DNA from: a virus
Lineage: Duplodnaviria > Heunggongvirae > Uroviricota > Caudoviricetes
DNA: 14,981 nt
Reading direction: 5' to 3' (one strand)
IMG/VR virus record: IMGVR_UViG_2606217106_000010
Coordinates: 1 to 14,981 of that record
The notes beneath the pieces were generated by a model. The model saw only the letters and a list, made by a program, of their open reading frames with translations, did no database searches and was not told the origin of the DNA. The position numbers were made by a program, and so were the translations under genes. Of this stretch, positions 5,983-11,457 are shown in pieces. How positions within the stretch are numbered: position 1 is the first letter of the stretch; each line of letters begins with the position of its first letter.

Positions 5983-7053
5983 TTATTTGATTTCAATTTT
6001 GTCCCACTCCCTGCCTCTGTCATCACGATACTGTGATGCCATGGTGTCCGACTTATGCCCGAGAAGATGTTGAGCAAATTTATCGCTTATCTGCTTCTCA
6101 TAGAGTCTTGCAGACAAACTGCGCAACTCGTGAAAGGTTGGCGGATCCCCTTCGAAGGAGAGACCTGATGCTTTTCGTGCGCGCATAAAATACCTTGATA
6201 CTGTGCCGGATGAAAGCGGTTCACGACGAGTAGATGCAATTATGGTTTCTCCGCCAAGAATCTTTTTGCATTTATCAAGTGTTTCCTTCATTGATATCCC
6301 GAGAGCATCAACATGCAATGTTGTTGGGATGGCAATTTTTACGCCTGTTTTGCTTTGCTCGACATAAAGATATCCATCTACGATATCAGACCACTTCATT
6401 TCGCATAAATCACCAACTCGCTGCCCGGTAACAACAGCCAGTTCCATTGCAAGTCTAAGCCAACATGGTGATGATTCTGCTGCTTGATAAATTTTCAGGT
6501 ATTCGTCAGCCGTAAGTCTTGATCTCCTTACCTCTGATTTTGCAGCGCGAGTGGCTGCGACCGGGTTTGTTGTTATATGGCCTTCAGCCATAGCCTCTCG
6601 GAATGCATCGCTCAGTGTTGATCTGATTAACTTGGCTGATGCCGCCTTTCCCTCGTCTATGTATCCATTGAGCATTGCCGCAATTTCTTTTGTGGTGATG
6701 TCTTCAAGTGGAGCATCAGGCAGACCCCTCCTTATTGCTTTAATTTTGCTCATGTAATTTATGAGTGTCTTCTGCTTGATTCCTCTGCTGGCCAGGATTT
6801 TTTCGTAGCGATCAAGCCATGAATGTAACGTAACGGAATTATCACTGTTGATTCTCGCTGTCAGAGGCTTGTGTTTGTGTCCTGAAAATAACTCAATGTT
6901 GGCCTGTATAGCTTCAGTGATTGCGATTCGCCTGTCTCGGCCTAATCCAAACTCTTTACCCGTCCTTGGGTCCCTGTAGCAGTAATATCCATTGTTTCTT
7001 ATATAAAGGTTAGGGGGTAAATCCCGGCGCTCATGACTTCGCCTTCTTCCCAT
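5983..7053 (-). CDS. int: Phage lambda-type integrase (tyrosine recombinase)
   Basis: 356-aa ORF MGRRRSHERRDLPPNLYIRNNGYYCYRDPRTGKEF...HLLGHKSDTMASQYRDDRGREWDKIEIK, near-identical to lambda Int by recollection. It sits directly against the P-prime arm of attL, as in a lambda lysogen. Confidence 0.96.
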   Translation of the reverse strand: MGRRRSHERRDLPPNLYIRNNGYYCYRDPRTGKEFGLGRDRRIAITEAIQANIELFSGHKHKPLTARINSDNSVTLHSWLDRYEKILASRGIKQKTLINYMSKIKAIRRGLPDAPLEDITTKEIAAMLNGYIDEGKAASAKLIRSTLSDAFREAMAEGHITTNPVAATRAAKSEVRRSRLTADEYLKIYQAAESSPCWLRLAMELAVVTGQRVGDLCEMKWSDIVDGYLYVEQSKTGVKIAIPTTLHVDALGISMKETLDKCKKILGGETIIASTRREPLSSGTVSRYFMRARKASGLSFEGDPPTFHELRSLSARLYEKQISDKFAQHLLGHKSDTMASQYRDDRGREWDKIEIK

Positions 7054-7145
7054 TTCTGATCCTCTTCAAAAGGCTACCTGTTACTGGTCGATTTAAGTCA
7101 ACCTTTACCGCTGATTCGTGGAACAGATATTCTCTTCCATCCTTA
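7031..7145 (-). pseudogene. xis: xis remnant: only the C-terminal ~37 codons of lambda-type excisionase remain
   Basis: The reverse strand encodes ...KDGREYLFHESAVKVDLNRPVTGSLLKRIRNGKKAKS* and overlaps the int start as in lambda. Lambda-like sequence ends near 7145/7146, with no upstream xis start codon or N-terminal coding sequence. Confidence 0.75.
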
Positions 7146-7155
7146 TATAACCAGG

Positions 7156-7336
7156 TGAATCATTTGATACCGACAAGGGTTTTAGTGAAAGGAGGTGAAA
7201 TCACCTGTAAGATACTGAAATAAAACAGGTGATGGCTAGATGTGCGGATAAGGTCTATTTGATACCGATTGTGCAATAATTAGTCATTTATTATAAAATC
7301 GGCAACTCATTTGATACTGTGGTTTTAGTCTTTTAA
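7156..7336 (+). repeat. Putative left end (attL) of a Mu-like transposable prophage with three direct transposase-binding-site-like repeats
   Basis: CATTTGATACCG at 7161-7172, TATTTGATACCG at 7256-7267 and CATTTGATACTG at 7308-7319 are direct repeats; repeats 1 and 3 are each followed by GGTTTTAGT. Spacing of ~95 and ~52 bp resembles Mu L1-L2-L3. A candidate terminal 5'-TG lies at 7156-7157. Confidence 0.55.
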
Positions 7337-7377: not shown

Positions 7378-7406
7378 GCGGGCTAATGCTATTAACCCGC
7401 TTTTGG
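7378..7406 (-). terminator. Possible hairpin terminator overlapping the 3' end of the repressor gene
   Basis: GCGGG (7378-7382) and CCCGC (7396-7400) form a 5-bp stem with a 13-nt loop, flanked by a T/A-rich run on either strand. The stem is short. Confidence 0.3.
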
Positions 7407-7937
7407 TTCTACCGCGTTAGATTTGCGACTTCTCTCAGTTTCTTCCAAAATCTCTCTGACGCGTTCGTCAGACATACCTTCAAGCTGTAATGCAGCTATT
7501 CTTTTCCTTCCTTCTAAGCGGATTAGATCTTGATTTTCAGGCTCTAACAACCGAGCTAAGTACTTGGCTCCATTCAGAACCAAATTTTTCGATAGCTGCT
7601 CTAAGTCTTTTTCATCAAGTGCGCTGATAATCGTCATAATTATCTTCTTGCTTTCATCTTGATTTTCCTTGATCTCACAACGATTCACTTGTGATGCATC
7701 ACTGAATCCACATAGCCACTCAACACTTACTCCTTCGATAGACGCAATCTGAAGGGCGACACTTAAGGATGGCTCAGTGCCACGAGACAGATAATTGTTT
7801 AGTGTTGAAAATGAAAGCCCCCAATCTCTTGCTGCAGCTCTGACGCTGCGGGAGCCAATCAGCCTTTTCAGACGCTCAGCAATGCTTTCTTTTCTACCAC
7901 CAGGAAAAGAAAGAGATGTTGTTGTTTGCTTGTTCAT
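7392..7937 (-). CDS. Prophage repressor with Cro/CI-type HTH, in the position and orientation of Mu c
   Basis: 181-aa ORF divergent from ner. The N-terminal region (IAERLKRLIGSRSVRAAARDWGLSFSTLNNYLSRGTEPSLSVALQIASIEGVSVEWL) has the pattern of an XRE/CI-family HTH. There is no obvious S24 peptidase domain. Confidence 0.7.
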   Translation of the reverse strand: MNKQTTTSLSFPGGRKESIAERLKRLIGSRSVRAAARDWGLSFSTLNNYLSRGTEPSLSVALQIASIEGVSVEWLCGFSDASQVNRCEIKENQDESKKIIMTIISALDEKDLEQLSKNLVLNGAKYLARLLEPENQDLIRLEGRKRIAALQLEGMSDERVREILEETERSRKSNAVEPKAG

Positions 7938-8121
7938 TTTCTTTTCTTCCTATCAATTTGAAATTATTAACTTTTAGTGTTGTCAGCAACCATTGATCCA
8001 CAATAGACAAAAGAAAGATGTTTTTTTGCTTTACATGAAGCAGAAGTGGATCAATACTTATATCAAATTTGATAACTAAGTTTAGTTATCAAATTTCGTA
8101 ACTTTTTAGGATAGATGAATC
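7938..8121. promoter_or_regulatory. Divergent promoter/operator region between the repressor and ner
   Basis: AT-rich 184-bp intergenic region containing a 14-bp perfect palindrome TATCAAATTTGATA (8061-8074), a further half-site copy TTATCAAATTT (8086-8096), and a 10-bp inverted repeat ATTGATCCAC (7993-8002) / GTGGATCAAT (8046-8055). Confidence 0.5.
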
Positions 8122-8352
8122 ATGGCGAGAAATGAAGTTAAGCCTGATTGGCATCCTCAAAGAATTTTGGGGGAAGTCAGAGCCAGAGAAGGAAGCATGA
8201 GGGCGCTGGCCCGTAAAGCTGGCGTGGGTCAGAACAATCTGTACAACGCGGTATACCGCCATGTTCCCAAGTATGAGGGGATTATCGCGGAATGCCTGGG
8301 GGTGCCGCCCGAGGAGATTTGGCCCAGCCGCTACATTCGTAAGGTCGCGTAA
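8122..8352 (+). CDS. ner: Ner-like DNA-binding protein (Mu Ner / Nlp family)
   Basis: 76-aa ORF containing the motif EEIWPSRY (cf. Mu Ner ...PEVIWPSRY) and a KPDWHPQRILG N-terminus resembling Mu Ner. It is the first gene of the rightward operon and sits immediately before the transposase gene. Confidence 0.85.
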   Translation: MARNEVKPDWHPQRILGEVRAREGSMRALARKAGVGQNNLYNAVYRHVPKYEGIIAECLGVPPEEIWPSRYIRKVA

Positions 8353-8354
8353 TT

Positions 8355-10442
8355 ATGTTTGCTTCAGTCAAAGAACTGGTTGGATTACCGGGGATGCCGG
8401 GAACGGAGCAAGGCGTTCGCTATTCAATCAGGAAGTATGCAACCAGCGAAACCAGCAGACGCCGCAAGAAAGGCGCTAAAGGTTTTGAATACAGCATTGA
8501 CTGTTTACCTGAAGTGACACAGCAGGCATTACGCGAACGTTATGCCCTGCAACTGATGACGCAAAAAGCCGATGAATCACCGGCTCCGGTGGTGACAAAG
8601 GCCAGACGCTCGTCTGCCGTGGTTGATGCGGTGGAGGCATATCGCGGATCACCACAACTGATGGTCGAACGCCTCAATGCCCTGACTGAAAACCAGCGCC
8701 AGGTGGCAGACGCACGCATTGCGATCGTCAGTGAGGTGCTGAAATTCACGCAACAACCCGGTTTCAGCTGCGCTAAAGCTATCCGGTTCATCGTTGACCG
8801 CCTGTCACACTCGCAACTGGATGAGCGCATTGTGGCAATGGTTGAGATAGCGAACGCCAGAAAGGGAAACAGTCGCGTGTTGAGTGAAATCACGCTGAAA
8901 CGCTGGATTGCGGCCTTTAATAAGGCACAGAACGCTGCTGAACGCCTGCTTTTGCTGGCACCAGGTAAACGCCAGGAAATAAAAGCCGAAGATATTAACT
9001 GGTTGCCCGAATTTCTGGCGCAGTATCGCCAGTCAAACGGCCGACCAATGACCGAGGCTTACGAGGATTTTGTTGCCGAATGGCAGCACCGGCACGCTGA
9101 TGAGCCTTATATGCTCGATATCATGCCGTCTTATGACACCATTCGCCGCGCAATGAAGAAACTGCCGGAAGTGGTGAAACAAAAAGGACGGGTTACCGGC
9201 AGTGAATACCGCCAGCTTGAGGGATTCACGCGCCGCGACTGGTCAAAAATGCCGGTGAATTATGTCTGGATTGGTGACGGTCACGGCATGAAGCTGAAAT
9301 GCGCGCACCCGGTTCACGGGCGGCCATTCGCACCGGAAGTGACCTTTGTTATCGACGGTGGCACGCGCTTTGTGGTGGGCTGGAGCCTTGACCTGGCTGA
9401 AAATGTTTTCGCCGTAGCCGGTGCCATACAGCACGGTATTCGCCATCATGGCAAACCGTTTCTGTATTACTCGGATAATGGCTCCGGGGAAACCGCCGAC
9501 GTCCTGGATAAGGAGATTGTGGGGATACTGCCACGACTGGGGATTAATCACCCGACAGGGATTGCCGGTAATCCGCAGGGACGGGGCATTATCGAACGGC
9601 TTAACCGCACATTACCGATGCGCATAGCCCGTAAATACCGCACCTATTTCGGGAAAGGAGCAGATCGCGAGACGTTACGTAAAACCAACCGCGATTTACG
9701 CTCGGCATTCAGTGCCCTGCAACAGGGCAAACGGCTGAACGCCCGGCAGCAGTCAGCGATGCGTGATTTACCGTCCTGGTCTGAACTGATTGATGCCATT
9801 CGTGACGGTGTTGAGTGGTACAACAACCGGCCGCACGATGAATTACCCATGAAGCCGAACGGTAAACATTACAGCCCGGCGGAGTTCAGAAAAAAACGCC
9901 TGGCGGAAGAGGACACGGAAATTGAATGGCTGTCCGATGTTGAACTGCGGGATATGTTCCGGCCGATGGTGGAGCGCCCTGTAAGACGCTGTGAAATACG
10001 CTGGCTGAATAATATTTACTACGCGCCCGAGCTGCGTGACGAGCATGGCCGTAAGGTACTTATCAGCTATGACATTCATGATGCCGAACGAATTACCGTG
10101 CGCCGCCCGGATGGCAGCGTGATTTGCGAGGCGGTATGGGACGGCAATAAACGCGAAGCCTTCCCTGTCAGCGCGGAATACTACAAACAGCAGCAGCGCC
10201 TTAAAGGCATGCGTAAACGCGCAGAGGAAAAAATCCGTGATGCCGAGGATGAGGTTGTCAACGTGCTGGAGCACAAGCCGCAGGAGCCCTGGCTGGAAAA
10301 CATATACCGCCCTGTGGGTAATACGGTGACCGTTCAGCAACCGGTCGCTGACGATGAACCTGATGAAGAATACGAGCGTAATTTCCAGCGGGGATTGCAA
10401 CTGCTCGAAGCGAAATTAAAAGAAAGTGATCCGCTGGCCTGA
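8355..10442 (+). CDS. MuA-family DDE transposase (transposable-phage transposase A)
   Basis: 695-aa ORF. Its N-terminus resembles the MuA enhancer-binding domain (cf. Mu MELWVSPKECANLPGLPKTSAGV...GVKGGKAIEY versus here ...GLPGMPGTEQGV...GAKGFEYS). The catalytic-core region VWIGDGHGMK...ILGWSLDLAEN parallels Mu WINGDGY...ILGWRCDVSEN. It is followed by a B-like gene. Confidence 0.92.
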   Translation: MFASVKELVGLPGMPGTEQGVRYSIRKYATSETSRRRKKGAKGFEYSIDCLPEVTQQALRERYALQLMTQKADESPAPVVTKARRSSAVVDAVEAYRGSPQLMVERLNALTENQRQVADARIAIVSEVLKFTQQPGFSCAKAIRFIVDRLSHSQLDERIVAMVEIANARKGNSRVLSEITLKRWIAAFNKAQNAAERLLLLAPGKRQEIKAEDINWLPEFLAQYRQSNGRPMTEAYEDFVAEWQHRHADEPYMLDIMPSYDTIRRAMKKLPEVVKQKGRVTGSEYRQLEGFTRRDWSKMPVNYVWIGDGHGMKLKCAHPVHGRPFAPEVTFVIDGGTRFVVGWSLDLAENVFAVAGAIQHGIRHHGKPFLYYSDNGSGETADVLDKEIVGILPRLGINHPTGIAGNPQGRGIIERLNRTLPMRIARKYRTYFGKGADRETLRKTNRDLRSAFSALQQGKRLNARQQSAMRDLPSWSELIDAIRDGVEWYNNRPHDELPMKPNGKHYSPAEFRKKRLAEEDTEIEWLSDVELRDMFRPMVERPVRRCEIRWLNNIYYAPELRDEHGRKVLISYDIHDAERITVRRPDGSVICEAVWDGNKREAFPVSAEYYKQQQRLKGMRKRAEEKIRDAEDEVVNVLEHKPQEPWLENIYRPVGNTVTVQQPVADDEPDEEYERNFQRGLQLLEAKLKESDPLA

Positions 10443-10524
10443 AATAAAAAAATAACCCGAGGGGTGACTCAGGTTATTTGAGGTTTCAGTCTCGGAGAAT
10501 GCTGTCTCAAGCGAGGTGAATAAT

Positions 10525-11457
10525 ATGACCGATATTAACGATGTAATCAAGACCATTGATGAACTTATTGATGGCGGCGTACTGACGCAGTATGCCATCG
10601 CCAGAGAGGCGGGAATTTCCGACGGCACATTATCGGCTTTCCGTAAGGGAAAATATAAAGGCGATAACGCTGCTGTGGCTGCTTCCCTGCGCTCCTGGTA
10701 TGAGAACTGGAATAAACAAAGCGCACTGCCGGAACCGCCGCAGTTTGTGGAAACTCAGACAGTCCAGGAGCTGCGCGCACTGTTTCAGGCGGTTCGCCTG
10801 ATGGGCTGTATTAACGTTATTGTGGGCGTACCGGGTGTGGGTAAAACGGCCACTGCCCGTAATTACTGCCAGGAGCAACCAAACACCTGGATGATCACCC
10901 TGTCACCCGCGCACTCCAGCGTCACGGAGTGTCTGCTGGAGCTGGCCGATGCGCTGGGGATTGATTACACCCGCGCGAACAAAGGGGCATTATCCCGCGC
11001 CATCCGCCGTCGCCTGATGGGAACGCGTGGACTGGTGATTGTGGATGAGGCGGATCATCTTGGTATTGACGGTCTGGAGCAACTCCGGGCAATTCAGGAC
11101 GCCACGGGGATCGGGATGGTGCTTATTGGTAACCCGCGCGGATTGTTTAAAGGTGGACGCCGCGCCTTTGATGATTTATCGCGCCTGTTCAGCCGTCTTG
11201 CCCGTACAAAACAACTTCGCAAGGCCAAAAAGGCGGATGTGCTGGCCATTGCCAGGGCATGGGGTATCAGTGGTGAGGCCGAGCTGGCCGTCATGCAGGC
11301 TATCGCTGAAAAGCCGGGAGCGTTACGCGTTCTGACACATACGCTTAACCAGGCGTGGCTCACCGCCAGCGGTGAAGGCGCGGCGCTGACAGAAAAACAT
11401 ATTAATGCGGCCTTTAAAGAGGTTTATACCAACCCTGAATTACTCTCACAGGTGTGA
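10525..11457 (+). CDS. MuB-family AAA+ ATPase / target DNA activator
   Basis: The provided ORF starts at GTG 10516; the ATG at 10525 with a GAGGTG RBS upstream is the more likely start. Walker A VGVPGVGKT and Walker B LVIVDEADHL are present. Strong resemblance to Mu B (PEPPRFVETQTV..., QKPGALR...). Confidence 0.9.
   Translation: MTDINDVIKTIDELIDGGVLTQYAIAREAGISDGTLSAFRKGKYKGDNAAVAASLRSWYENWNKQSALPEPPQFVETQTVQELRALFQAVRLMGCINVIVGVPGVGKTATARNYCQEQPNTWMITLSPAHSSVTECLLELADALGIDYTRANKGALSRAIRRRLMGTRGLVIVDEADHLGIDGLEQLRAIQDATGIGMVLIGNPRGLFKGGRRAFDDLSRLFSRLARTKQLRKAKKADVLAIARAWGISGEAELAVMQAIAEKPGALRVLTHTLNQAWLTASGEGAALTEKHINAAFKEVYTNPELLSQV

Follow-up and report, generated by a model that had tools for sequence, protein, structure and literature searches.

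In phage Mu, the transposase sites lie at positions 6-27 (L1), 111-132 (L2) and 151-172 (L3) of the left end and at positions 6-27 (R1) and 28-49 (R2) of the right end, R3 being inverted. The packaging (pac) site of Mu lies within the left end, in the L1-L2 spacer, as do HU sites; host factors act within attL, and the Mu repressor itself has some affinity for the Mu ends. A list of such sites for the Mu-like prophage Sp18 is said to come most likely from Morgan et al. (2002, J Mol Biol). The KS10 paper (PMC2628397) gives six putative transposase binding sites for each of Sp18, Mu, FluMu and Pnm1. The CC119 paper (PMC10132054) likens the inserts of the LC7278xx records to Sp18 of O157 Sakai. 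Another source (PMC8705779) gives a target duplication of 5 bp for Mu and of 6 bp for B3, and mentions TA-TA tips in transposable prophages of Leptospira. Papers on Mu-like phages of Yersinia and on a Pseudomonas saltovirus yielded no usable information on ends.

The window analysed here is the whole stretch of 14,981 nucleotides. Sequence comparisons indicate that its positions 7146-7319 are very probably the attL of an Sp18-type Mu-like prophage lodged in a lambdoid xis gene, and that three repeats found there are the end-binding sites of the prophage transposase. The lineage, the Sp18 type of E. coli O157, is already known, and six putative sites are cited for it in the KS10 paper. The three repeats were read in the window as follows.

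7161-7172, + strand: repeat 1, CATTTGATACCG
7256-7267, + strand: repeat 2, TATTTGATACCG
7308-7319, + strand: repeat 3, CATTTGATACTG

A sequence-only reading of this DNA had noticed three repeats of the same orientation, about 95 and 52 bp apart, and the exact positions and spacings were confirmed: the start-to-start distances are 95 and 52 bp, and all three copies are on the + strand within 160 bp. When YATTTGATACYG was searched with at most one mismatch on both strands of the 14,981 bp, it matched at 7161, 7256 and 7308 only (0.28 matches expected), and three or more matches were obtained in 0 of 200 dinucleotide shuffles. The 8-mer core TTTGATAC likewise occurs in the window at these three places only (0.45 expected). 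The region around the repeats has a G+C content of about 40%. The same reading had seen GGTTTTAGT after repeats 1 and 3. The sequence is indeed present, at 7178 and 7321, but its offset from the start of the repeat is 17 nt for repeat 1 and 13 nt for repeat 3, and relatives lack the copy that follows repeat 3. As an extension of the site it was rejected; since it is out of register and unconserved at L3, we treated it as incidental, and the comparison of relatives suggests that it is probably not part of the transposase site.

The repeats had also been placed just outside a repressor gene and at a boundary with foreign DNA. Both placements were borne out: the repeats lie downstream of the repressor gene, which occupies 7392-7937 on the - strand, and the junction falls between 7145 and 7146. 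The features on the left side of this boundary and at the junction itself are these.

5983-7053, - strand: lambda-type integrase, adjoining the 3′ part of xis
7031-7145, - strand: remnant (3′ part) of a lambdoid xis gene, target of the Mu-like insertion, from lambda and HK022 homology
7142-7145, no strand assigned: CTTA, predicted left copy of a 4-bp target duplication, from six insertions of the same family
7146-7147, + strand: left terminus of the Mu-like prophage, dinucleotide TA, from the homology break and about 20 insertions

The int-xis regions of lambda and HK022 match the window from 6900 to 7145 at 99-100%, and the homology then ends. The uninterrupted xis in the HK022 alignment reads ...CATCCTTA|ACCGGAGG, and the window reads ...CATCCTTA|TATAACCAGG; repeat 1 begins 15 nt inside this junction and the L1 frame 5 nt inside it. 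From 7146 onwards, the window matches the bcsA prophage of E. coli CP145714 at 99.8% over 955 bp, with 100% identity over the first 255 bp, and it matches at 93% the DNA annotated as 'inserted Bacteriophage Mu-like phage' in the Stx phages LC727881 and LC727895. A further 23 loci with related transposases yielded about 20 unrelated flanks, all of them abutting T[G/A]TAACCAGGT. These flanks, together with the lambdoid break at 7145, set position 1 of the element at window position 7146. Left ends 100% identical to one another, with the TA terminus, stand behind four different flanks (those of the window, of CP145714 and of two IMG/VR contigs), which shows that the element is mobile; the Mu-like element was found in bcsA, fbpC, meaB and many other loci. 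Of 5,426 complete E. coli genomes, 233 contain left ends of the family, some of them as many as four, and no record among the 5,426 covers the window's own junction.

On the lambdoid side, the xis gene of a lambda/HK022-type prophage has been split by the Mu-like element. Only its 3′ 115 nt are left beside int, so that excision of the lambdoid prophage is probably impaired. This prophage (window 5983-7145) adjoins a ybhC-like host gene. Upstream of the integrase gene lie genes for a DASS symporter, a PRK11413 hydratase and a PRK10531 esterase-like protein, which resemble the E. coli genes ybhI, ybhJ and ybhC.

The right end of the window's insertion lies outside the window, and right ends were read in other copies: in CP145714, in LC727895 (a 93% relative), in the O157:H7 fbpC prophage, in the meaB prophage and in about 15 IMG/VR contigs. 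In all right ends read, the element finishes with ...TAGTATCAAA(N23)CGGTATCAAATGAAATGCAAATCGGTATCAAAAAAATCGCCGCGCTATA and is followed by unrelated DNA. Three inverted TTTGATAC cores are located 18-25, 40-47 and 75-82 nt from the right tip, and the left cores 18-25, 113-120 and 165-172 nt from the left tip. The terminal core is therefore equidistant from both tips (18-25), and the R1-to-R2 spacing is 22 bp. Set in 22-bp frames, the putative sites are the following.

7151-7172, + strand: L1, CCAGGTGAATCATTTGATACCG, element positions 6-27, core at 7163-7170
7246-7267, + strand: L2, GGATAAGGTCTATTTGATACCG, element positions 101-122, core at 7258-7265
7298-7319, + strand: L3, ATCGGCAACTCATTTGATACTG, element positions 153-174, core at 7310-7317
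6-27 from the right tip, inverted: R1, read in other copies of the prophage
28-49 from the right tip, inverted: R2, read in other copies of the prophage
63-84 from the right tip, inverted: R3, read in other copies of the prophage

The sequence GCAACTYATTTGATACT is common to L3 and R3. The right junction of the window's own insertion is predicted to read ...GGTATCAAAAAAATCGCCGCGCTATA|CTTAACCGGAGG, about 38.4 kb downstream. The sequence-only reading had taken the repeats for transposase sites of a Mu-like left end. This proposal is supported by the mapping of the true end to 7146, 15 nt before repeat 1, by the presence of the motif, three times and inverted, at the opposite boundary in other copies of the same or a related prophage, and by the gene order described below.

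Most relatives have TG as their left terminus, where the window has TA. On the right, every E. coli-type end read in the three lineages covered finishes in TA-3′, with right ends taken from L003, L004 and L080-L127, and a few more distant contigs of the same scan finish in CA-3′. A 4-bp direct repeat flanks all six complete insertions (L001/L004, L002/L003, L028/L091, L128, L129, L130). It is GACG in the bcsA insertion, CACG in fbpC, GTCA in meaB, ATCA in one IMG/VR contig, TTCA in VL40 (L130) and AGAG in LC727895, where the depositors also annotated a 4-bp duplication. A probable seventh pair (L037/L094) has GTCG. A 5-bp duplication, tried with the terminal base shifted to either side, was rejected because at least five of the six pairs contradict it (four of the six when the base is shifted to the left side). 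The flanking sequences suggest that the target cuts in the Sp18-type family appear to be 4 bp apart, and on the strength of the six insertions CTTA is predicted to be the duplicated target in the window.

Inside the element, the left end is followed by a set of early genes.

7392-7937, - strand: repressor with a helix-turn-helix, 181 aa, in the position of Mu c (weak Pfam HTH_3 and weak NCBIfam RstR-like matches)
7938-8121, no strand assigned: divergent operator/promoter region with TATCAAATTTGATAAC repeats, palindrome at 8061-8103
8122-8352, + strand: ner-like gene, 76 aa (Pfam HTH_35, E = 1e-21)
8355-10442, + strand: transposase, 695 aa, MuA analogue and presumed reader of L1-L3
10516-11457, + strand: MuB-like AAA+ target-capture ATPase (Pfam Phage-MuB_C, E = 2.5e-25, and AAA_22)

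The order repressor (divergent), ner, A and B is that of Mu, with Pfam matches to HTH_35, HTH_Tnp_Mu_1, Mu-transpos_C and Phage-MuB_C. The counterpart of the repressor in CP145714 is annotated as a transcriptional regulator. The operator region contains a perfect 15-nt palindrome at 8065-8096, and it is wholly different in Sp18-like relatives that carry the same end motif. The transposase is 23% identical to MuA. Its Pfam domains are HTH_Tnp_Mu_1, Mu-transpos_C and a weak rve core, and its sequence matches MuA I-alpha (1TNS) and retroviral integrase cores; the I-gamma domain of MuA was not detected in it by Pfam. Residues 1-300 were modelled with AlphaFold at moderate quality (pLDDT 75, pTM 0.42); the model contains three helical modules, and the top Foldseek matches of this modelled N-terminus are MuA I-beta and the Mu transpososome, all with E > 0.01. 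From these results we infer that the transposase may read the 22-bp sites in two halves, as in Mu, with a different specificity.

The conservation of the sites was followed in 13 distinct, diverged left ends, which could be aligned without indels. Positions 1-88 of the element are 86% invariant. The core of L1 is invariant, that of L2 is invariant to 88% and that of L3 to 100%; in the spacers flanking L2 and L3 only 14-28% of the columns are invariant, so that the cores alone stay fixed there. The lineage L037/L041, whose transposase is about 80% identical, keeps TTTGATACT with spacings of 104 and 42 bp. Beside L1 it carries AAAAATCCGGGAGGA, and the closeness of this sequence to AAAAAACCGGGAGGA of Mu points to a common ancestry with the Mu attL. 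In four more distant IMG/VR contigs (L075, L081, L098, L102), which are assumed to be from transposable phages, two GGTATCAAA sites are found 22 bp apart and a CA-3′ end follows 17 nt after the inner GGTATCAAA, as in GGTATCAAACCGTTCGCGCCGCTACA. These sequence comparisons suggest that the TTTGATACC site type may be older and more widespread, with the canonical CA tips elsewhere.

Two groups of relatives depart from the window in different parts of the element. The first is a sister lineage from E. coli and Shigella (L007/L044/L130), with the tip TATGACTAGGTAA and a transposase 74% identical to that of the window. It has TTCAAGATAA at the three left positions and, inverted, at the three right positions, the right-end spacings being 22 and 35 bp (loci read: L007, 1737-1900; L130, 205-360 and 34740-34825; L044; L054). 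Its transposase and that of the window are 44-57% identical in residues 58-200 and 86-95% identical in the catalytic core. The second is the O157:H7 relative, in which the TTTGATAC ends are kept and, past residue 57, the transposase shares 90-99% identity with that of the window; its repressor is only 42% identical, residues 1-57 of its transposase 53% identical, and its operator region is unrelated. The O157:H7 relative thus keeps its ends despite a different immunity region, and the sister lineage is changed in residues 58-200; the end motif goes with the central part of the N-terminal region of the transposase and is independent of the immunity module. A looser constraint on N-terminal regions could by itself explain why residues 58-200 have diverged more in the sister lineage.

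Relative to the O157:H7 prophage, the operators, the repressor and residues 1-57 of the transposase (8355-8525) have changed together. Such a joint change of the I-alpha and immunity functions resembles the modular swap between Mu and D108. In Sp18-like prophages, RefSeq annotates a 'tRNA-OTHER' between head morphogenesis genes (L128, 17923-18003; L129, 23610-23689).

The repeats might be bound by a regulator or a host protein (the prophage repressor, Ner, IHF, HU or Fis) and not by the transposase. The presence of ATTTGATA also inside the operator palindrome TATCAAATTTGATAAC at 8061-8103 speaks for this reading, as do the end affinity of the Mu repressor and the action of host factors in the Mu attL. 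We nevertheless consider it very improbable, because the relatives with a 42%-identical repressor and unrelated operators keep the end motif, because L054 combines TTTGATAT-type operators with TTCAAGATAA ends, and because the right end, far from any regulatory gene, carries a mirror image of the motif equally far from its tip. A single reader common to the end and operator motifs, both of which contain ATTTGATA, was likewise rejected, since operators and ends vary independently among the relatives.

The region between the first two sites is itself conserved.

7173-7233, + strand: L1-L2 spacer, nearly invariant in the family, candidate pac or host-factor site

Copies of the hexamer AGGTGA/TCACCT lie in it at 7193, 7227 and, on the minus strand, 7201; L1 holds another one at 7153. 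Four of the nine copies of this hexamer in the window cluster in 7153-7233, and they include the palindrome AGGTGAAATCACCT. The hexamer was looked for at the right end and is absent there. Sister lineages have a Mu-like CCGGGAGGA...GATGGGAT spacer in place of the AGGTGA spacer. By analogy with the position of pac and HU sites in Mu, the AGGTGA spacer is a candidate for a pac or host-factor site. That the repeats themselves would be the packaging elements recognized by the terminase is very improbable: they do lie in the left end, as the Mu pac does, but a Mu-type pac is specific to the left end and the repeat motif is equally present, inverted, at the right end. The left-specific, invariant AGGTGA spacer at 7173-7233 is the better pac candidate.

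A chance recurrence in AT-rich DNA, or arm-type sites of the lambdoid int/xis system, which the 40% G+C content and the neighbouring lambda-type int and xis might evoke, can practically be dismissed, as no shuffle gave three matches, the cores are conserved islands across diverged relatives, and the repeats lie beyond the lambdoid homology break and travel with the Mu-like element into many loci. In particular, arm sites of a lambda-type attP for Int, Xis or IHF were rejected because the lambdoid homology ends at 7145 and the repeats lie beyond it.

The preferred reading remains that the transposase binds the repeats, which would be the conserved 3′ halves of the three 22-bp sites L1, L2 and L3. 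We infer by analogy with Mu both that the transposase is the binder and which of its residues read the sites. Subdomains of its N-terminal part (around residues 90-270, I-beta-like and probably I-gamma-like) would bind L1-L3 and also the three inverted sites of the right end. Pairing of the ends by the bound subunits would give a transpososome. Nicking would take place at the terminal TA-3′, and the strands would be joined to a target DNA held by the MuB-like ATPase encoded at 10516-11457.

For annotation, the immediate gain is that the prophage boundary is fixed to the base, at 7146. The element also has a compact, conserved six-site end code, which differs from that of Mu in sequence and shares its register, and all six sites of this code have changed together in the sister lineage. 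The TA tips and 4-bp duplications are modest variations on a well-studied mechanism and possibly useful for orthogonal tools. More broadly, we tentatively propose, at a little short of an even chance, that the E. coli/Shigella group uses a MuA-type transpososome with TA-3′ tips and a 4-bp stagger, in which sister pairs have switched end specificity (TTTGATACYG versus TTCAAGATAA) through changes confined to transposase residues around 58-200. If this is true, the group already contains Mu-type transposition systems that are orthogonal to one another, and it is a natural experiment in the evolution of site recognition. The feature is otherwise ordinary within a known phage family and is not a new kind of system.

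Among the known systems, the Sp18-type O157:H7 prophage in fbpC is close to the window: over roughly its first 200 bp the left end shows about 88% identity and places the three cores identically, the right end does not differ, and the transposases share 93% identity. It differs in its left terminus, which is TG where the window has TA, and in the repressor, operators and residues 1-57 of the transposase, with the values given above. The sister lineage (L007, L130) has like tips, six sites, the same 22- and 35-bp right spacings and a 4-bp duplication, and differs in the core at all six sites and in residues 58-200 of the transposase. The transposable prophages of Leptospira (with TA-TA ends) and phage B3 resemble the present family in having TA tips or a duplication other than 5 bp, but they make duplications of 6 bp (PMC8705779) as against the 4 bp found here.

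The comparison with Mu bears on a last claim of the sequence-only reading, that of a distinct lineage with its own end recognition. With a transposase only 23% identical to MuA, this description is fair; it has to be qualified in that the lineage is the known Sp18 type and that TCAYTTGA is common to the window sites and to L1 and R3 of Mu. Several other traits set the two apart. The window sites end in TTTGATACYG, unlike the Mu consensus (…TTCAYT…RCGAAAR); R3 is direct in the family of the window and inverted in Mu; the rve core of the transposase is more like that of retroviral integrases; TA...TA termini replace TG...CA, and the target duplication is 4 bp instead of 5. The architecture is nevertheless that of Mu. 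In both, the terminal site occupies positions 6-27 at each end and R2 follows directly at 28-49, a long gap separates L1 from L2 and a shorter one L2 from L3 (95 and 52 bp here, 105 and 40 bp in Mu), and the genes run in the order c-ner-A-B. The N-terminal part of the transposase may also share the folds of MuA I-alpha and I-beta.
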